Virus record (IMG/VR): IMGVR_UViG_2636416161_000006
Origin: a virus
Lineage: Duplodnaviria; Heunggongvirae; Uroviricota; Caudoviricetes
Reading direction: 5' to 3' (one strand)
Length of the DNA: 5,132 nucleotides
Part shown: one piece after another, positions 210 to 5,132 of the stretch
How the letters are laid out: the number at the start of each line of letters is the position of its first letter
Numbering within the stretch: the first letter of the stretch is position 1
Notes under the pieces: generated by a model
The model's input: only the letters and a program-made list of their open reading frames with translations
Told to the model about the DNA's origin: nothing
Database searches by the model: none
Made by a program: the position numbers and the translations under genes

Positions 210-668
210 ATGATGAAGATAATCGCAAAGGCTTTTCATCATGTATTTGGCAAAGTATCCGATTTGCCATCTGTAATACCGATGAACAACAGAAGGGAGA
301 TGCTGCTTGATGTGGTTGTGTTCCCATACATAGACCTTTCTGAACCAATGAAAGCAACTCTTTTCAGAAAGTATCTTGGCGACTTTAAACGCCGTTTTAC
401 AGGCGTTAACGGGATGGTTGATATCTGCTCCATCAGAGATATTGTTGAACTTGCAGGGATTAATTTGTGGGGAGAAGCGGCAGCAGCATACAAATGGCTT
501 GAACGCCTGCACTGTGTTTCATTCAGTGACATGAGTGCTGATATCGCTTTAATGGTTCCTCACAAAATCAATATGGTCTTTGCTGGTGGCAATTACACTT
601 ATCCATGGAACCAGGAACAAAGAGAGAACAGGAAAGCTCACGCCATGAAGAGTAATGCGACTCCATAA
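210..668 (+). CDS. Hypothetical protein, about 152 aa; possible helix-turn-helix or winged-helix DNA-binding segment (SIRDIVELAGINLWGEAAAAYKWLERL)
   Basis: ORF-track frame 207..668. GGGAGA at 201-206 is an SD-like element, so ATG at 210 (or 213) is a more plausible start than TTG at 207. Stop TAA 666-668, followed by an intrinsic terminator. The overlapping minus-strand ORFs look spurious. No family recognised. Confidence 0.7.
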   Translation: MMKIIAKAFHHVFGKVSDLPSVIPMNNRREMLLDVVVFPYIDLSEPMKATLFRKYLGDFKRRFTGVNGMVDICSIRDIVELAGINLWGEAAAAYKWLERLHCVSFSDMSADIALMVPHKINMVFAGGNYTYPWNQEQRENRKAHAMKSNATP

Positions 669-720
669 ATATAGTTTTTAGAGTCCATAAAAAAACTGTC
701 AAAACCTGACATACAGAACG

Positions 721-753
721 ATGCCACCAGCTACTGAACGGTGGCATTTTTTT
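721..753 (+). terminator. Rho-independent terminator: stem ATGCCACC / GGTGGCAT (8 bp), 11-nt loop, then a run of seven T
   Basis: Perfect 8-bp inverted repeat 721-728 / 740-747 followed by TTTTTTT (747-753), about 55 nt after the stop of the 210-668 CDS. The T-run is on the + strand only. Confidence 0.75.
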
Positions 754-785
754 GTGCTATTTGTTTCATATTTTGCAATCACAAT

Positions 786-815
786 GATGAATGTTGCGTT
801 TTATGAAACTATAAT
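786..815 (+). promoter_or_regulatory. Candidate sigma70 promoter for the 849-4598 operon: perfect -10 TATAAT (810-815) with a weak -35 (GATGAA/ATGAAT/TGAATG at 786-793)
   Basis: Consensus -10 hexamer 34 nt upstream of the first start codon of the unit and directly downstream of a terminator. The -35 matches TTGACA at only about 3 of 6 positions. Transcription start not determined. Confidence 0.45.
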
Positions 816-817
816 GA

Positions 818-833
818 CTGTTGTTTTATACAG
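818..833 (+). promoter_or_regulatory. LexA-box-like (SOS box) palindrome CTGTTGTTTTATACAG (CTGT-N8-ACAG)
   Basis: Matches the invariant CTGT and ACAG half-sites of the gammaproteobacterial LexA consensus TACTGTATATATATACAGTA, with an AT-rich centre. Lies between the -10 hexamer and the SD, a typical repressor position. Only one such site occurs in the window. Confidence 0.55.
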
Positions 834-848
834 TTCTAAGGGGGCGTT

Positions 849-1022
849 ATGGCTATTTCAGTAAAGCCAGTATTGATAAGTGAGAAGCAAATGGAAGCGA
901 TAAAGAAAATTCAGGAGGAGCAGCGTAAAAAATCAGAGGTAGGAGTTGCGCCAACGATCCACGAAATTGCTCGGGGATTAATGGATAAGGCGCTGGCTTA
1001 CACTTTAACTGGACGTGGGTAA
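849..1022 (+). CDS. Small protein, 57 aa (MAISVKPVLISEKQMEAIKKIQEEQRKKSEVGVAPTIHEIARGLMDKALAYTLTGRG); possible ribbon-helix-helix DNA-binding protein
   Basis: Not in the supplied ORF track, probably below its length cut-off. Strong SD AAGGGGG (838-844) 4 nt before ATG 849. Stop TAA 1020-1022 lies 4 nt before ATG 1027 of the next ORF. Pattern of short N-terminal strand (KPVLIS), helix, turn and helix resembles CopG/Arc-type RHH proteins. Fold assignment is inference. Confidence 0.65.
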   Translation: MAISVKPVLISEKQMEAIKKIQEEQRKKSEVGVAPTIHEIARGLMDKALAYTLTGRG

Positions 1023-1026
1023 ATCA

Positions 1027-2493
1027 ATGGCTACGTGGCAACAGGGTATTAATTCTGGTGGTTTTCTGGCTGGCATCGGTACGCAAAATGAGAATGCGCC
1101 AAAGGCAAGCGACATTAACGCAACGCTTGGTCTGATCCGCGAAAACAATGAACTGGCTCGCTCAGGTGCAAATAACGTTGCTCTGACAGGTCTTCGTGGT
1201 CTGGCTGGAGTTGCTGATATTTATAAGCAGCAGCAACAGCAGGAGCGTAAAGCGGCATTCCAGAAAGGTTATGCAGATGCTTATGCGTCCGGTGACAGGG
1301 AGCAGATGCGTAATCTTATTACAGCATTCCCAGAAGAGTTTGAGGAAGTCCGTAAAGGGATGAGTTATGTCGATGATGCTCAAAGGGATGATTATGGCAA
1401 TCTGGCGCTCAAAGCACAGGTAGCCTCATCGCTTGGTCCGGGCGCATTTGGCAGGTTCATGATGGATAATGAGCAGGAGATGCGTCGTTTAGGTATCCCT
1501 CCAGAAACTATTGCTGAAATGCAGGTTAATGACCCGCAGGGCTTCCAGCATTTCGCAGGTAATCTGGCGCTGTTTTCTCTCGGTCATGAGAAGTATTTCG
1601 ATATCAAAGATCAAATGGAAGGTCTGGATATTGAGCGTGGCAAGTTGGCAGAGACAATCCGCAGCAATCAGGCTGGCGAGGCACTTCAGGCGAGAGGGCA
1701 GGATATTAGCCGAGCAAATGCGTTAACGTCAGCATATGCACCAACAGCAGCAATGCAGAATTACAATCAGTACGCTCAAATGTTAAAGGCGGATCCTGAG
1801 GGGGCTGCGGCATTTGCGGCAGCGGCGGGAATTAATACAAACGCCAAAAAATTAATGAGTGTTAGAGAAAACGATGATGGCACTGTCACAAAATACTACA
1901 CAGACGGAAGTGAAGAGCAGGGAAAACTAAACCAGCCAATATCTGGAGATGGGTTTCGTCCAATAGCTTTGCCAACAGCCCAAAAGATCATGGAAAAGTC
2001 GCCAGAAGGGGCTAAAAAAGCTGCTGGATTTGCATACAGAGTTAGGGATGCTCTTGATTCAATAGATACACTGAAAGACCAGCTTAGCCCACAGCGAGTG
2101 GCGATCATTAATAATGCTTTGGGTAATGGGACGCTGGCTAACTTAACGCTCAGCCCAACAGAGCAGCAATACGTTGTTAATGCTAATGACGCAATAATGG
2201 CAATACTCCGTCAGGAAACAGGGGCAGCTATCGTACCTGCTGAAATGTCAAAATATTATCAAATGTATTTCCCTCAGCCTGGCGACTCCACAAAAACCAT
2301 TGATACCAAGCGCCGGAAGATGGAAAACCAGTTCAATTCGCTGAAAGCTGCTTCTGGTCGAGCTTATGATGCTTTGCGGGTTATTTCAGCAGTTGACAGA
2401 GGAACTTCTTCTTCGTCGCAGACATTGCCGCAATCTGAGCAGGTATCACAGCCAGCAGCCAGCAGTAACTTTTCTTCACTATGGGGTGATTAA
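1027..2493 (+). CDS. Hypothetical protein, 488 aa from ATG 1027 (492 aa if GTG 1015 is used); Gln/Ala-rich, low-complexity, no hydrophobic segment, function unknown
   Basis: Uninterrupted ORF of about 1.47 kb. ATG 1027 follows the upstream stop by 4 nt (translational coupling), with weak SD-like GTGGGT at 1015-1020. Its stop TAA 2491-2493 overlaps the next start in TAATG. Contains a QQQQQ run and Ala-rich tracts. No Walker, HxH, nuclease or other catalytic motif recognised. Confidence 0.9.
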   Translation: MATWQQGINSGGFLAGIGTQNENAPKASDINATLGLIRENNELARSGANNVALTGLRGLAGVADIYKQQQQQERKAAFQKGYADAYASGDREQMRNLITAFPEEFEEVRKGMSYVDDAQRDDYGNLALKAQVASSLGPGAFGRFMMDNEQEMRRLGIPPETIAEMQVNDPQGFQHFAGNLALFSLGHEKYFDIKDQMEGLDIERGKLAETIRSNQAGEALQARGQDISRANALTSAYAPTAAMQNYNQYAQMLKADPEGAAAFAAAAGINTNAKKLMSVRENDDGTVTKYYTDGSEEQGKLNQPISGDGFRPIALPTAQKIMEKSPEGAKKAAGFAYRVRDALDSIDTLKDQLSPQRVAIINNALGNGTLANLTLSPTEQQYVVNANDAIMAILRQETGAAIVPAEMSKYYQMYFPQPGDSTKTIDTKRRKMENQFNSLKAASGRAYDALRVISAVDRGTSSSSQTLPQSEQVSQPAASSNFSSLWGD

Positions 2494-4598
2494 TGGCTAA
2501 AGCATGGAAAGATGTTATCGCCTCTCCACAGTATCAGGCGTTAGCACCAGAACAAAAAGCGCAGGCTCAGGAGCAATACTTCAATGAAGTCGTGGCCCCG
2601 CAAGCCGGAGAAAGTGTAGAGCAGGCTAAGCAGGATTTTTATGCTGCCTATCCACTACCATCAACGAATGAAATAGACCGATCCCAATCAGCAACTCAAA
2701 ATATTCAACATACATCATCTGATAATTCTCTTGCGTCAGGGTATGCAAAGTTAGCTACTCAGCAAAGAGAGGGGCTTGAGCGTTCAGCAGAACAGGGAGC
2801 CAGTCTTGGGGCTGCGATGCGCGATGCTATAACAGGCGAAAGCCGAATGACTCCAGAGATGGAGAGACTGCAAAATGTCGACCTTGCCCCAGAGTTAACC
2901 TCACTCAGCATGGATGCTCTAAAAGCTCGATGGTCTCAACTTTTCGGCTCTGACGCATCTCAGGAAAAGATTCTTCAGAGCATGGGAGCGAAATTAAGGC
3001 AGGATGAGAAGGGTAACACTATCGTTTCCCTGCCATCCGGTGATTATGCTCTGAACAAGCCGGGTTTATCGCCGCAAGACGTGGCATCGTTTCTGGCTAA
3101 TGCGCTGGCGTTTACACCAGCGGGCAGGGCTGGAACGGTGCTTGGTGCCATAGGAAAATCAGCAGCTACAGATTTAGCACTACAGGGAGCCACCAGCCTT
3201 GCTGGTGGAGAAGATATTGATCCGTTACAAACGGTAATTTCTGCTGGCATTGGTGGTATTGGTAAGGGGCTGGAAAATACAGCGAGTGCGGTTTCGAGGG
3301 CTGTTCGTGGTGATATGTCGCCTGAAGCAAAGGCTGCTGTCAACTTTGCATCGGAAAGAAATCTGCCGTTAATGACCAGTGACATGCTGAAAGATAAAAC
3401 CTTTATGCAGAGTCAGGCTCAGACATTAGGCGAAAGAGTTCCTTTTTTTGGAACCGGTAAGAATCGGCTGAATCAACAACAAGCACGAGAAAATTTAGTC
3501 AGAACATTTAGCGATGGTCTGGGTGGCATTTCTGATAAACAGCTTTATGAATCTGCGACTAAAGGGCAACAAAAATTCATTGAGGCAGCAGGAAAGCGAT
3601 ATAACCGCATAATTGACGCTATGGGGGATACCCCTGTCGATCTCTCAAACACGGTAAAAGCTATCGACAATCAGATTGCCGTGTTAAGCCGCCCGGGCAA
3701 ATCTCAGGATAGAGCCGCGGTAAAAGTCTTGCAGCAATTTAAAGACGATATCACCAGCGGACCAAATGACCTGCGTCTGGCGAGGGAAAACAGAACCGAT
3801 CTTCGAAAGCGATTTATGGCGTCATCTGACACTGTTGATAAAGATACGCTCCAGAAAGCCAGCGATATTATCTACAAGGCATATACGGCGGATATGAAAA
3901 AAGCCGTAGCCAAAAATCTTGGAGCAGACGAAGCCATTAATATGGCAAGGGTTGATCGCTCATGGTCTAAATTCAATGACATGATGGGAAGAACGCGCGT
4001 TCAAAAGGCAATAGCCAGCGGCAAGGCCACGCCTGAGGATGTAACAAAACTCGTTTTTAGCCAAAGCCCATCAGAACGTTCTCAGCTTTACAGGCTTCTG
4101 GATGACAATGGTAGGCAAAACGCACGAGCAGCCATAGTTCAGAATGCTGTAGATAAGGCGACTGATCCGTCTGGAAATATCAGTGTTGAGAAGTTTATTA
4201 ATGCGTTACACCGGAACAGGAAGCAATCAGCAACTTTCTTTAAAGGCGTACATGGAAAGGAACTGGACGGCGTTATTAAATACCTCAACGATACAAGACA
4301 CGCGGCAAAAGCGAACGTTCAAAACTTAAATGGTCAGCAGCTTTATGGATTGTTAGTTGGTGGTGGCATCATAAACGCAGCAGTATTAGCGGGGATGCTA
4401 AAAACGGCTGCGTTTGTTGTTCCTGCTGCTGGTGCCGTAGGCGGAGCAGCGAAGGCATACGAAAGCCCTGTTATACGAAATGCCTTGTTACGTCTGGCAA
4501 ATACGCCAAAAGGTAGCACAGCATATGACAGAGCGATCAGTACGGTCACACAATCACTGACCACAGCAGCACAAGCATCGCAAAAGGAAGCTCAATAA
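2493..4598 (+). CDS. Hypothetical protein, 701 aa; mostly hydrophilic and low-complexity with a C-proximal Gly/Ala-rich hydrophobic hairpin (about aa 617-653); possible membrane-inserting protein
   Basis: Uninterrupted ORF of about 2.1 kb. SD GGGGTGA (2483-2489), ATG 2493 overlapping the upstream stop. Hydrophobic stretch LYGLLVGGGIINAAVLAGMLKTAAFVVPAAGAVGGAA is encoded at 4341-4451. Stop TAA 4596-4598. No family recognised. Confidence 0.9.
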   Translation: MAKAWKDVIASPQYQALAPEQKAQAQEQYFNEVVAPQAGESVEQAKQDFYAAYPLPSTNEIDRSQSATQNIQHTSSDNSLASGYAKLATQQREGLERSAEQGASLGAAMRDAITGESRMTPEMERLQNVDLAPELTSLSMDALKARWSQLFGSDASQEKILQSMGAKLRQDEKGNTIVSLPSGDYALNKPGLSPQDVASFLANALAFTPAGRAGTVLGAIGKSAATDLALQGATSLAGGEDIDPLQTVISAGIGGIGKGLENTASAVSRAVRGDMSPEAKAAVNFASERNLPLMTSDMLKDKTFMQSQAQTLGERVPFFGTGKNRLNQQQARENLVRTFSDGLGGISDKQLYESATKGQQKFIEAAGKRYNRIIDAMGDTPVDLSNTVKAIDNQIAVLSRPGKSQDRAAVKVLQQFKDDITSGPNDLRLARENRTDLRKRFMASSDTVDKDTLQKASDIIYKAYTADMKKAVAKNLGADEAINMARVDRSWSKFNDMMGRTRVQKAIASGKATPEDVTKLVFSQSPSERSQLYRLLDDNGRQNARAAIVQNAVDKATDPSGNISVEKFINALHRNRKQSATFFKGVHGKELDGVIKYLNDTRHAAKANVQNLNGQQLYGLLVGGGIINAAVLAGMLKTAAFVVPAAGAVGGAAKAYESPVIRNALLRLANTPKGSTAYDRAISTVTQSLTTAAQASQKEAQ
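3190..3208. other. Back-to-back Chi octamers forming a perfect palindrome CCACCAGC-CTT-GCTGGTGG
   Basis: GCTGGTGG (E. coli Chi) on + at 3201-3208 and its reverse complement at 3190-3197, i.e. Chi on the minus strand. Additional Chi octamers at 582-589 (+) and 724-731 (-, inside the terminator stem). Confidence 0.6.
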
Positions 4599-4659
4599 CA
4601 GATGACCATGGATGGTTGGTTATAATAGTAATTAGTATTTTTTCAAATAGTTATGAACA

Positions 4660-5058
4660 TTAACACTTGCCTTTAACATTGCCGACAAATGAGCCTGTAA
4701 ATGAGCCTATATCAGATCGACTAATTGTTCGTGTATGGATCACTTTTCCGTCATTTGAGATTGCCCATGTGACAAGCGTCAGTTGACCATCTCGATAGCT
4801 TCTTCCCATCATGGCATTCGGAGATAGCGGGTAATAATCAATACCTCCACCTATACCATCTTTTGCCAAGATAAGATCCGCCTTCTCTTTACTTATTACC
4901 AAATGAAATGTATCTGGTATAGATGATAACTTATAGTTATACCCATCTGAACTTGAGGCTTCTTGTCCTTTCAGATCACCAATAATCCAGCATTCAGCGT
5001 TCGCTCCAAAAGAAGCAAATAATAAACCGGAGACAACCAATCGCTTCAATTGATTCAC
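4660..5058 (-). CDS. Small secreted (periplasmic) protein, 132 aa precursor with a predicted Sec signal peptide (MNQLKRLVVSGLLFASFGANA, cleavage after ANA); mature domain of about 111 aa begins ECW and ends in Cys
   Basis: ORF-track frame 4660..5121. An internal GTG (5056-5058) is preceded at 6-nt spacing by the strong SD AAAGGGAGG and gives a textbook signal peptide (N-terminal K/R, hydrophobic core, AxA site). The upstream ATG at 5121 has no SD within the window and would add 21 non-signal residues. Not a lipobox (E at -1). About 42 percent GC by hand count of several lines. Confidence 0.75.
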   Translation of the reverse strand: MNQLKRLVVSGLLFASFGANAECWIIGDLKGQEASSSDGYNYKLSSIPDTFHLVISKEKADLILAKDGIGGGIDYYPLSPNAMMGRSYRDGQLTLVTWAISNDGKVIHTRTISRSDIGSFTGSFVGNVKGKC

Positions 5059-5132
5059 ACCAACCCTCCCTTTAGCGTTGTTTAGAATGGCAATTGGATT
5101 TGCCCCTATATTTCCAGACATCTGTTATCACT

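Follow-up and report, generated by a model that had tools for sequence, protein, structure and literature searches.

The two long open reading frames in the window, by which we mean the whole 5,132-nucleotide stretch of DNA analyzed here, almost certainly encode the gp20- and gp16-type ejection proteins that build the DNA-delivery conduit of P22-like podophages, and they are very probably carried not by a phage but by a phage satellite, an EcCIMP1-like phage-inducible chromosomal island (PICI). Our best reading, to which we assign a probability of roughly 0.6, is that the island's ejection proteins are made with SOS timing and loaded into the virions of a helper phage. This location suggests that hijacked virus particles receive DNA-delivery parts encoded by the island. 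A preliminary description, made from the letters alone, had pointed to this pair of genes as a likely place for undescribed biology, which holds for the gene context; the protein family itself is one of known ejection proteins.

Identity of the two proteins

Both ORFs and the TAATG link between them were confirmed from the sequence at the positions claimed earlier (Table 1). The junction reads GATTAATGGCT, with one A common to the TAA stop of ORF1 and the ATG start of ORF2, and a GTG at 1015 offers ORF1 an alternative start (492 aa). The compositional features described before were also recovered in the translations: ORF1 contains 13.7% Ala, 7.8% Gln, 8.4% Gly and 6.8% Ser, ORF2 contains 14.1%, 7.1%, 7.6% and 8.0% of the same residues, and there are a QQQQQ run (ORF1 residues 67-71), an AAAFAAAAG tract and, in ORF2, a GIGGIGKG stretch. 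A 701-codon frame stays open by chance with a probability of about (61/64)^701, roughly 1e-15, and dN/dS between island copies is approximately 0.18-0.39; therefore, ORF1 and ORF2 are real genes rather than chance ORFs. Their frames are unbroken in all variants sampled.

Although the two proteins had been described as lacking any recognizable domain or demonstrable homology, ORF1 matches Pfam PF16928 (P22 injectosome gp20) over residues 12-228 with an E value of 1.3e-83 (280 bits against a cut-off of 29.7) and PHROG 917 over its full length (E 4.5e-143). ORF2 matches PHROG 770, "DNA transfer protein" (gp16), with an E value of 2.1e-161, its residues 19-700 aligning with positions 3-667 of the 668 in the profile. 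The tblastn matches were ejection proteins of P22, Sf6, L, ST104, N7 and APSE. Over residues 1-238, ORF1 shares 55% identity with P22 gp20, and it is 51% identical to its APSE counterpart across 83% of its length, and in full-length tblastn comparisons ORF2 is 31-33% identical to gene 16 of Sf6, L, g341c and ST104 and 67% identical to its counterpart in phage N7. Given this homology, ORF1 and ORF2 are not domain-less unknowns. In P22, the DNA conduit crosses the periplasm as a tube of gp20 and ends at the inner membrane with gp16. Thus, the earlier guess at podophage internal virion (ejection) proteins was right, and the description of mostly helical, non-enzymatic structural proteins can be accepted for these gp20/gp16 relatives.

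Residues 1-67 of the gp20-type protein are 94% identical to gp20 of P22, N7 and Kapi1, whereas the remainder shows 17-38% identity to the same proteins. The window protein is identical at 12 of the 12 residues named for gp7 contact and the outer membrane in the in-situ P22 structure (Q6, S10, N21, N23, D29; V51, L53, L56, L59, V62, I65, Y66). The gp16-type protein contains a hydrophobic segment with a Kyte-Doolittle 19-residue maximum of 1.79, which starts directly past the residue aligned with G532 of P22 gp16 and is a candidate membrane-inserting region. A 95.8%-identical DNA copy of the 3' part of ORF2 is present in a degraded P22-like prophage (L014).

Table 1. Positions of features in the 5,132-nucleotide window.
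Feature	Position	Strand	Remarks
152-aa ORF	210-668	+	between island primase gene and ejection-protein operon
Intrinsic-terminator-like hairpin and T-run	720-755	+	ends transcription unit of the 152-aa ORF
TATAAT, putative -10 of cassette promoter	810-815	+	read from sequence; no good -35
LexA-operator-like palindrome GACTGTTGTTTTATACAGTT	816-835	.	sole CTGT-N8-ACAG in window; PWM
Leader ORF, 57 aa	849-1022	+	always ahead of ejection-protein cassette
ORF1	1027-2493	+	488 aa from ATG; gp20-type ejection protein
gp20 residues 1-67	1027-1227	+	P22 counterpart: gp7* channel insert and outer-membrane helix
TAATG stop/start overlap, ORF1/ORF2	2489-2495	+	
ORF2	2493-4598	+	701 aa; gp16-type ejection protein
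Hydrophobic Gly/Ala-rich segment of gp16-type protein	4335-4451	+	about residues 615-653; Kyte-Doolittle
132-aa protein	4660-5058	-	N-terminal signal-peptide-like sequence; P22's sieA slot
End of IS2 copy	5095-5132	.	inserted 36 bp upstream of start codon of the minus-strand gene

Genomic context, control region and distribution

A 99.7% identical counterpart of the window is present in E. coli NZ_CP104613 as part of a 17.5-kb element located between yicC and dinD and flanked by 14-bp direct repeats. This element carries genes for an integrase, AlpA (PF05930), AntA, Ash, a Zn-ribbon/Toprim/DUF927 primase and PerC, and no capsid, tail or lysis genes. Within 45 kb (20 kb on each side), none of the genes for capsid, portal, terminase, gp4, gp10, gp26, gp14, gp7 or tailspike was found. 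The preliminary description had reasoned that clear homology to phage structural proteins in a canonical morphogenesis operon would make this an ordinary prophage region; the homology is there, but the operon is not, and its place is taken by an integrase/AlpA/primase island.

The 152-aa ORF is annotated as a CDS in a near-identical E. coli locus (L001) and has a 52%-identical homologue at the same place in a Leclercia island (L012), with no match in Pfam, PHROG, NCBIfam or PADLOC. The hairpin behind it (stem 730-745 in the terminator scan, then ATTTTTTTGT) is kept in EcCIMP1 and in a 12-kb circular element (alignment A1), and the TATAAT is invariant in the same alignment. A consensus promoter scan returned no full sigma-70 match, the -35 element being weak, so we infer the cassette promoter. 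A perfect CTGT-N8-ACAG (818-833; one in the window versus 0.04 expected) lies 2 nt 3' of the TATAAT and 15 nt 5' of the leader ORF. With a PWM of 20 E. coli LexA operators, which themselves score 13.2-27.2 bits, this site reaches 17.8 bits, and the 95th percentile of maxima in shuffled windows is 13.1. The box is identical in EcCIMP1 and the circular element. This single perfect site, scoring within the operator range, is plausibly a LexA-type operator, in agreement with the SOS control suggested before. The leader protein is 87-100% identical among island variants; its AF2 model (pLDDT 78) consists of an extended N-terminus and two helices, with no PDB fold match, and the protein has no profile similarity to Arc/Mnt.

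Downstream of ORF2, the 132-aa protein, whose signal peptide was read by eye, matches PHROG 2651 (unknown function; E 2e-22) and is likewise annotated as a CDS in L001. No SieA-type protein is encoded within the window; a SieA homologue occupies this slot in one island variant (L006), and others have a signal-peptide protein or a lipoprotein there. Identity to island-bearing genomes ends at 5094, and window positions 5060-5132 have matches in more than 1,300 plasmids, where they fall on IS2 transposase features.

The module at 690-1026, comprising the promoter, LexA-like box and leader ORF, was found in 499 of 5,426 complete E. coli genomes, and the cassettes behind it are variable sets of ejection proteins. 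The leader ORF is followed directly by a P22-type gp20 N-terminus, without gp7 or gp14, in 217 genomes (this island's type included) and by gp14 in 258; the P22-type N-terminus of the former retains all 12 gp7-contact and outer-membrane residues. A divergent gp7 joined to a divergent gp20 N-terminus was observed in approximately 255 genomes, the pair occurring almost nowhere else, and islands with the divergent N-terminus bring their own gp14 and gp7. In Leclercia, the same island family has a 14-7-20-16 cassette. The arrangement is preserved at three or more attachment sites, with two types of replicase and in two genera, and gp20 and gp16 are retained in every full cassette; some islands (L003 and L009) have lost the cassette. 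As estimated from genome counts, P22-like gp10 is present in about 35% of genomes with this gp16 type versus about 15% of others, which favors a link to such a helper; about 65% of the former show none at the megablast level.

Proposed mechanism and rival readings

According to our proposal, the leader ORF, gp20 and gp16 would form a translationally coupled operon read from the island promoter, and because a LexA operator would overlap this promoter, the operon would be switched on with the SOS response, as a resident P22-like helper prophage is induced. Island gp20 and gp16 would then join helper procapsids, beside or replacing the helper's copies. When a new cell is infected, island gp20 would dock by its P22-type N-terminus in the gp7 channel supplied by the helper, and its C-terminal part and gp16 would together make up the part of the conduit that lies in the periplasm and inner membrane, giving the packaged DNA its way in. 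We consider it slightly more likely than not that virions take up the island proteins and that these function there. Low co-occurrence of gp10, the scarcity of Kapi1-like prophages among EcCIMP1 strains and the unchanged Kapi1 titers in the presence of EcCIMP1 (PMC11773190), islands without the cassette and the weak -35 element count against the mechanism. Since ejection proteins are loaded before DNA packaging, any benefit would also go to helper virions. Our literature search found satellite-encoded ejection proteins only in a passing mention in the EcCIMP1 paper (PMC11773190).

The benefit that we prefer, as a possibility, is that variants of gp16 and of the gp20 C-terminal part alter the susceptibility to injection blocks of the SieA type or to differences in the envelopes of recipient cells. 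SieA bypass as the selective reason is rather doubtful. P22 mutations that escape SieA lie in the C-terminal parts of gp20 and gp16, with none in gp7 (Leavitt et al. 2024, PMC10883804), the two gp16 changes being G532W and P546S (PMC10883804). In the window protein these two positions are occupied by the conserved Gly and by Ala, which gives no argument for SieA escape. Moreover, phages whose E-proteins differ greatly were excluded by P22 SieA and by another SieA 24% identical to it (PMC10883804), which weakens the bypass idea.

The island proteins might instead act against phages, as poison or decoy subunits that join helper E-proteins in defective conduits or block conduit assembly by superinfecting P22-like phages. 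Such an action would explain the superinfection immunity that EcCIMP1, on which no known defense system was found, adds to Kapi1 lysogens (PMC11773190). A helper-type N-terminus joined to a foreign C-terminus is also the expected look of a dominant-negative subunit, and the window proteins are unmatched by PADLOC models. We nevertheless regard this role as unlikely, as Kapi1 titers after induction were unchanged by EcCIMP1 (Pick, Stadel & Raivio 2025, PMC11773190), an operon under LexA repression would be silent before induction, when exclusion is needed, and poisoned virions would also abolish transfer of the satellite. Furthermore, as the proteins lack signal peptides, copies made in the cytoplasm should not get into the periplasm, and the adjoining slot offers better exclusion candidates, namely the SieA homologue of L006 or the signal-peptide protein or lipoprotein of other variants.

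It is quite unlikely that the cassette is passive cargo or a decaying fragment, that is, a terminal piece of a P22-like late operon that was gained by recombination and does not serve the island. Recent exchange with phages is indeed visible at its boundaries (DNA about 90% identical to that of phages at window positions 1017-1700 and 2445-2655; gp16 DNA 96-98% identical to prophage or viral contigs), and some islands lack it and others are interrupted by IS elements. However, the unbroken frames and dN/dS values, the dedicated, conserved promoter and leader ORF ahead of the cassette in 499 genomes and the persistence of the arrangement across attachment sites, replicase types and genera argue against this view, and the way in which the gp20 N-terminus type tracks the presence of island gp7/gp14 is hard to explain without selection for function. 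A canonical morphogenesis operon of an ordinary P22-like prophage, viewed through a narrow window, would fit the strong homology to P22 genes 20 and 16, their shared order and overlap and the sieA-like slot downstream, but it is very improbable given a 17.5-kb element with a PICI gene set, a primase-helicase and terminator upstream instead of gene 7 and no homologue of the virion genes listed above within 20 kb on either side; for genomes carrying the window sequence, these neighboring genes refute it. The chance of an SOS-induced protein bacteriocin or translocation module is close to negligible. Only the LexA-like box and the Gly/Ala/Gln-rich composition favor it, neither a cytotoxic, immunity or lysis gene nor a colicin-family match is present, and the composition is accounted for by the full-length homology with virion ejection proteins, so that the likeness to bacteriocin translocation domains noted earlier finds no support.

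Comparison with P22, EcCIMP1 and other satellites

The window pair shares with P22 gp20/gp16 the protein families, gene order, TAATG overlap and a similar Ala/Gln/Gly-rich composition. By contrast, past gp20 residue 67 the window protein is 37% and then 24% identical to that of P22, identity to P22 gp16 is 30% over about two thirds of its length, and P22 gp16 has no hydrophobic C-terminal segment at the threshold at which the window protein has one. The window genes also lie outside any virion operon, with what appears to be a LexA-type promoter of their own. SieA of P22 acts on the conduit end made by gp20 and gp16, and its gene follows gene 16 immediately, in opposite orientation. The island retains this slot, which holds a SieA homologue in L006 but the unrelated PHROG 2651 protein in the window.

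EcCIMP1 is a PICI of E. coli MP1 whose excision and transduction require the P22-like phage Kapi1, and Kapi1-like prophages were found in only 2 of 21 EcCIMP1 strains; its ejection-cassette genes were proposed as packaging or head-morphogenesis factors, with LexA and ejection unmentioned (Pick et al., PMC11773190). The two islands share an AlpA-type HTH protein, AntA/B, DUF4222, Ash, a TOPRIM-DUF927 primase and PerC, some of these proteins being identical, as well as a nearly identical terminator, TATAAT, LexA-like box and leader ORF with an ejection-protein cassette next to them. EcCIMP1 is inserted at tRNA-Thr, whereas the window's island lies at yicC/dinD and has a different integrase. The EcCIMP1 cassette contains gp14 and gp7 in addition to gp20 and gp16; its gp20 is of a different type, 27% identical, and its gp16 is of the transglycosylase type and 906 aa long. 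The window's island has gp20 and gp16 only. Relative to its helper Kapi1, EcCIMP1 gp20 is 26%, gp16 24% and gp14 83% identical.

Satellites encode homologues or modifiers of helper virion components and thereby bias particle production their way. SaPI TerS/CpmAB, P4 Sid/Psu, Rpp of E. coli PICIs and the capsid-forming PICIs act on packaging specificity and on capsid size or supply; unlike these piracy modules, the module in the window would act on the DNA-entry machinery.

Ejection-protein genes of the P22 type on a satellite island

The two large ORFs of the window (ORF1 and ORF2) encode ejection proteins of the P22 gp20 and gp16 families; they are located on a PICI-type satellite, and the proteins are conserved and modular along the known contacts of the ejection conduit. 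The preliminary description was right about the extent of both ORFs, their TAATG junction, and their Gln-, Ala-, Gly- and Ser-rich composition (Ala 14%; Gln, Gly and Ser 7-8% each), including the QQQQQ run, the Ala tract and the GIGGIGKG stretch, but its statement that no domain is recognisable was wrong. ORF1 matches Pfam PF16928 Inj_translocase ("DNA/protein translocase of phage P22 injectosome") with 280.4 bits (cut-off 29.7), residues 12-228 being aligned to positions 1-217 of the 218-position profile, and PHROG 917 spans its full length (E = 4.5e-143). In tblastn searches, it shows 55% identity to P22 gene 20 across residues 1-238 and 51% to the APSE homologue over 83% of its length. We also compared the 12 P22 gp20 residues listed in the preprint of Yu et al. 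(10.64898/2026.09.03.749273), the only source describing the in-situ P22 channel structure (September 2026). The gp7*-bonding residues (Q6, S10, N21, N23 and D29) and the outer-membrane helix residues (V51, L53, L56, L59, V62, I65 and Y66) are all identical in the window protein. Judging from these alignments, ORF1 belongs to the P22 gp20 ejection family. Like P22 gp20, its product may be packaged into virions and ejected ahead of the DNA.

ORF2 is matched by PHROG 770 "DNA transfer protein" over residues 19-700 (E = 2.1e-161), and tblastn revealed 67% identity to the gene 16 product of Escherichia phage N7 and 31-33% identity to gene 16 of Sf6, L, g341c and ST104 with 100% of the query covered. 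The suggested likeness to podophage ejection proteins is thus borne out for both proteins. ORF2 has no NCBIfam match and no above-threshold Pfam match, which carries little weight against its gp16 membership because these libraries appear to lack a fitting HMM; some of its copies bear the RefSeq label 'P22-gp16 family phage DNA ejection protein', assigned by other rules. A hydrophobic segment is present in ORF2 at approximately residues 615-653, whereas P22 gp16 shows none at the same threshold; the C-terminus of P22 gp16 is not needed for membrane binding in vitro (PMC10883804). PDB sequence searches with both large proteins found no match to a solved structure, scanning the five window proteins against NCBIfam and PADLOC gave no match, and neither Rfam nor tRNA scans picked up anything in the window.

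Since chance frames are not so long and dN/dS between the window ORFs and their copies in other genomes is about 0.2, the two ORFs are real genes. P22 gene 16 also lies directly downstream of gene 20 and overlaps it through the same TAATG junction, in which stop and start codons share one base, and P22 gp20 and gp16 are likewise Ala/Gln/Gly-rich; both the "low-complexity" appearance and the overlap thus characterise the family.

A stretch of E. coli NZ_CP104613 matches the window at 99.7% identity, and 147 complete E. coli genomes contain 80% or more of the window. As the recommended examination of the neighbourhood showed, the genes in the 45-kb NZ_CP104613 locus (L001) sit in a PICI-type satellite island and not in a prophage. 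The island lies between yicC and dinD and is flanked by a 14-bp direct repeat, CAGATTCAGAATAT, at L001 10621 and 28104, giving a length of 17.5 kb. Its genes encode, in sequence, a tyrosine integrase (PF00589), an AlpA-family regulator (PF05930, 26.5 bits, cut-off 21), an AntA/AntB protein, DUF4222, Ash and several small ORFs; a Zn-ribbon/Toprim/DUF927 primase-helicase, the window genes, small minus-strand ORFs and a PerC regulator follow. The EcCIMP1-like gene order, the 10-20 kb size class, the direct repeats and the lack of capsid, tail and lysis genes are those of a PICI. No terminase, portal, capsid, gp4, gp10, gp26, gp14, gp7 or tailspike of Kapi1 or P22 was found in the 45-kb locus by tblastn, nor was the P22-type order (4-10-26-14-7 upstream of 20; immI and tailspike downstream) found around the window genes. 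The gp20 gene is instead preceded by the primase, a 152-aa ORF, a terminator and a 57-aa ORF.

EcCIMP1, the PICI of E. coli MP1, has the same backbone and gene order, and some of its proteins are identical. It excises, circularises and is transduced only with the P22-like temperate podophage Kapi1 (Pick, Stadel and Raivio 2025, PMC11773190). By analogy, helper-dependent excision, replication and packaging are predicted for the window's island. The same paper suggested, without a test, a role in packaging or head morphogenesis for the ejection-type genes of EcCIMP1, and mentions neither ejection nor LexA (PMC11773190). An island of this family also makes up a 12,152-bp circular 'plasmid' (NZ_CP148430.1) of strain Z1323CEC0013, containing integrase, AntA, primase, leader ORF and PerC with almost all of the ejection genes deleted; the chromosome of this strain bears window-type gp16. 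The circular element could be an excised or replicating form of the island and is compatible with excision. Paired GTGTACATAnnGGTGTACATAAT motifs are present just within both ends of the L001 island (10750-10790 and 28010-28040), adjoining the integrase gene at one end and near the right-hand att repeat at the other, and may be recombinase or AlpA binding sites.

Promoter region, leader ORF and right arm

The features of the window and the positions of a right-arm repeat are listed in the table.

Features of the window and sites of the right-arm repeat (window coordinates unless a locus is named)
Feature	Position	Strand	Remarks
152-aa ORF	210-668		between primase and cassette, with its own terminator; no family match
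Terminator-like hairpin and T-run	~720-755
TATAAT	810-815		2 nt before the CTGT-N8-ACAG site
Palindrome GACTGTTGTTTTATACAGTT	816-835		LexA-operator-like
AAGGGGG	between palindrome and leader ORF		Shine-Dalgarno-like
57-aa leader ORF	849-1022		ends 4 nt ahead of the gp20 start
gp20-type ORF (ORF1)	1027-2493	+	488 aa counted from ATG
gp16-type ORF (ORF2)	2493-4598	+	701 aa
132-aa protein gene	4660-5058	-	signal-peptide-like N-terminus; PHROG 2651, function not assigned
IS2 terminus TGGATTTGCCCCTATATTTCCAGACATCTGTTATCACT	5095-5132		36 bp upstream of the start codon of 4660-5058 (-)
Repeat TATTTTGCGACAAGTACGCGCGCG	L001 25537		~400 bp past the window end
Repeat TATTTTGCGACAAGTACGCGCGCG	L002 4358, 6112, 6400

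The CTGT-N8-ACAG pattern occurs once in the window, at 818-833 (0.04 occurrences expected). The palindrome containing it scores 17.8 bits against a matrix of 20 E. coli LexA operators; the operators of the matrix score 13.2-27.2 bits, and shuffled-window maxima reach 13.1 at their 95th percentile. The dinD operator of this set was found verbatim in L001, adjoining the island. EcCIMP1 and the 12-kb circular relative, a plasmid in its database entry, share the whole module of promoter region and leader ORF almost unchanged, and 499 of 5,426 complete E. coli genomes (~9%) contain it. On account of the score and rarity of the box and this conservation of the module, LexA control of the cassette is a reasonable inference from the operator-like sequence. 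The alpA gene of EcCIMP1 reacts to the helper rather than to damage alone (PMC11773190). The promoter scan found no good -35 element, and a terminator scan 3' of the gp16 gene found no convincing terminator.

Further sequences of this kind were noticed. An imperfect inverted repeat, CTGTCAAAACCTGACATACAG (696-716), is located after the stop codon of the 152-aa ORF and ahead of the terminator and is kept in EcCIMP1 and the circular element with one substitution; it was rejected as a LexA box for its 13-nt spacer and could be another operator. A second LexA-like sequence, TGCTGGATTTGCATACAGAG (2022-2041, 15.1 bits), lies inside the gp20-type coding region and is probably a chance match. The 152-aa ORF is identical in the island variant L006 and 52% identical in the Leclercia island, and no gene is annotated there in EcCIMP1.

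Of all parts of the module, the leader ORF is the best conserved and the one least understood. Its product is 75-100% conserved across islands, is translationally close-coupled to gp20, and matches no known family. The predicted model of this protein has an extended N-terminus and two helices, a layout suiting a ribbon-helix-helix fold; membership of the Arc/Mnt type is not supported (hhalign against an Arc/Mnt alignment, 1.8% probability), and a Foldseek search of the model against the PDB found no match.

Downstream of gp16, on the opposite strand, P22 has sieA in the slot taken by the 132-aa gene of the window. In L006, which has the same gp20/gp16 as the window, the slot (10928-11503, minus strand) encodes a SieA homologue with 29% identity to P22 SieA (E = 7e-6; PHROG 7745, E = 4e-4). 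EcCIMP1 has a 232-aa protein with a lipoprotein-type signal (LLAGC) after gp16 on the same strand. These slot proteins are candidates for the unexplained superinfection immunity of EcCIMP1. The IS2 insertion at the window end is absent from related genomes, and a 153-aa ORF listed to 5121 is an artefact of a frame read into IS2.

Where a sampled island has kept its right arm, this arm contains one to three copies of a non-coding repeat, TATTTTGCGACAAGTACGCGCGCG, always in cassette orientation. Fourteen of its bases, together with an upstream ATTTT, match Kapi1 (L010) at 18878-18892, inside the small-terminase gene; the chance expectation for such 14-mers is ~0.09. In P22-like phages, pac sites lie inside the small-terminase gene. 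A TerS-like ORF around the repeat was rejected, and because all three frames are broken by stops, TATTTTGCGACAAGTACGCGCGCG is regarded as a DNA element and not a gene. The match makes it a candidate pac-site mimic.

Cassette types and exchange with P22-like phages

Islands were sampled by the shared leader module, and the cassettes behind the leader were compared. The window type (gp20 + gp16) occurs at three attachment sites and with two integrase types. In the TW10598 type, residues 1-212 of gp20 are 95% identical to those of the window, while the whole gp20 is 75% and gp16 41% identical to the Kapi1 proteins; this island has a DUF5906 replicase. The cassettes of strain 042, an Escherichia sp. 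and EcCIMP1 have the order gp14-gp7-gp20-gp16, which is also found with EcCIMP1-type sequences in a Leclercia adecarboxylata island. Reduced forms have nearly or wholly lost the cassette.

Segment-wise comparison revealed that gp20 consists of three independently assorting pieces. Residues 1-67 of the window protein are 94% identical to P22, N7 and Kapi1 but 34% identical to the 042/EcCIMP1 island proteins; residues 68-212 show 34-38% identity to P22, N7 and Kapi1; and residues 213-488 are 99% identical to the 042 island protein versus ~20% for the phage proteins. The 042 island gp16 is also the same as that of the window (97.6%), and the type of the gp20 C-segment is strictly linked with the type of gp16 among the sampled islands. 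In situ, residues 1-47 of P22 gp20 lie within the gp7* channel, residues 51-66 form an outer-membrane helix that packs on gp7*, and the C-terminal "plinth" contacts gp16 at the inner membrane (10.64898/2026.09.03.749273); these contacts explain the three-piece pattern.

Gene content follows the gp20 N-terminus. In 217 genomes, the leader ORF leads directly to a P22-type gp20 N-terminus and both gp7 and gp14 are absent, and in 258 it is followed by gp14; in 255 genomes, the divergent gp7 is joined to the divergent gp20 N-terminus, a junction with only 257 carriers overall. Evidently, islands can do without gp7 and gp14 when their own gp20 fits the standard helper gp7, and those with another type of gp20 N-terminus bring their own. 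Such co-variation is expected from selection for a working conduit and counts against dead cargo. An alignment scan with the gp20 N-terminus, using one genome per species, gave two loci only, both of them islands, too few for a phage-to-satellite ratio.

The cassette also resembles phage DNA. Window 1017-1700 and 2445-2655 show 86-92% DNA identity to Salmonella and E. coli Lederbergvirus genomes, and the 3' part of gp16 is 95.8% identical at the DNA level in L014, a degraded P22-like prophage with Arc/Ant and tailspike remnants. As these identities show, cassette DNA is exchanged with the P22-like phage pool. A viral contig, L022 (IMGVR_UViG_3300045988_004969), shares window 2431-4615 at 98%. 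Its terminase, portal, gp4, gp10 and gp26 are Kapi1-like (93-100% amino acid identity), and it ends in right-arm sequence of island type with an AlpA-like gene. The contig arose either by natural recombination between phage and island or as an assembly chimera joined at the gp16 common to both. Its pairing of window-type gp16 with a different gp20 is accordingly given no weight either way.

EcCIMP1 differs from its helper Kapi1, with which it forms the one proven pair, to varying degrees (gp14 83%, gp7 57%, gp20 26% in the N-terminal part only, and gp16 24% identity), and at 26% and 24% its gp20 and gp16 are different in type from those of Kapi1. Of 5,426 genomes, 914 (16.8%) contain the P22-like gp10 marker. 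Among genomes with the window gp16 type, it is estimated to occur in ~140-160 of ~410-430 (~35%, versus ~15% elsewhere), an indirect figure from the gp10 count combined with a chimeric query that ignores clonal relatedness and is somewhat inflated by prophage gp16 copies. Among the sampled rows, 11 of 21 carriers had a second match within the same genome.

Possible role of the cassettes and relation to known satellites

In the most likely mechanism, DNA damage would lift LexA repression and induce a P22-like helper prophage at once; island gp20 and gp16, made in coupled amounts, would enter helper procapsids and, at the next infection, build the periplasmic and inner-membrane part of the conduit upon the gp7 base. 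Going further, we tentatively propose, at a probability of roughly 25%, that this satellite family uses interchangeable, SOS-switched P22-type ejection cassettes to re-equip hijacked virions with a DNA-entry conduit of its own choice. This would be piracy of the entry step and not of packaging or capsid size, and satellite particles could enter injection-blocking cells (SieA lysogens) or cells with different envelopes. On this view, docking onto the helper tail hub would be the requirement behind the presence of own gp7 and gp14 only with a foreign gp20 N-terminus.

The benefit to the satellite is the least certain step. SieA of P22 is an inner-membrane exclusion protein that blocks injection (Leavitt et al. 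2024, PMC10883804). Mutations escaping it map to the C-terminal regions of gp20 and gp16 and do not involve gp7, and the E-proteins of HK620 confer partial SieA resistance (PMC10883804). A satellite would gain by entering helper-holding cells, and because helper lysogens express exclusion functions, a variant gp20 C-segment and gp16 could pay off. However, two SieA types excluded very different E-proteins equally (PMC10883804). At two mapped escape sites, the window gp16 has a conserved Gly and an Ala, both ordinary and uninformative, and the gp20 escape sites are unmappable onto the window protein at ~20% identity. Escape from SieA-type exclusion is thus an unlikely rationale for the satellite.

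Several other explanations were weighed against conduit re-equipping. An ordinary prophage operon, which the preliminary description would have accepted given clear homology to phage structural proteins in a canonical morphogenesis operon, is excluded by the island context: the homology is clear, but a satellite island takes the place of the operon. A bacteriocin, also considered there, finds no support, as Pfam searches and the window neighbours revealed no cytotoxic domain and no adjoining immunity or lysis gene. If island gp20 and gp16 acted as a decoy or poison in phage defence, the extra superinfection immunity seen with EcCIMP1 would fit; such a role conflicts with the unchanged Kapi1 titres, with the predicted LexA repression in uninduced cells and with proteins that have no export signals, and better defence candidates occupy the downstream slot (one variant has a SieA homologue there, and others have exported proteins). 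The conservation and the co-variation speak against passive cargo.

Islands of this family are common, with strains 042 and NC101 among the carriers, and extend to Leclercia. Because of this frequency and because PerC-type regulators affect virulence gene expression, island transfer is of practical relevance. Besides, genes annotated as "phage DNA ejection protein" are unreliable prophage markers.

The protein families are familiar ones, and the island type has been in the literature since 2025. In the literature searched, the identity of these island genes as ejection-protein genes, a LexA-type operator and leader ORF heading the cassette (~9% of complete E. coli genomes), and a docking rule for cassette content appear to be undescribed. 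If satellite E-proteins are loaded into helper virions, satellites would influence which cells are injected, beyond the choice of packaged DNA, and the DNA-entry step would join the known targets of satellite piracy. Such loading would also offer a possible explanation for the "DNA transfer-like" genes of EcCIMP1 and its undefined superinfection phenotype.
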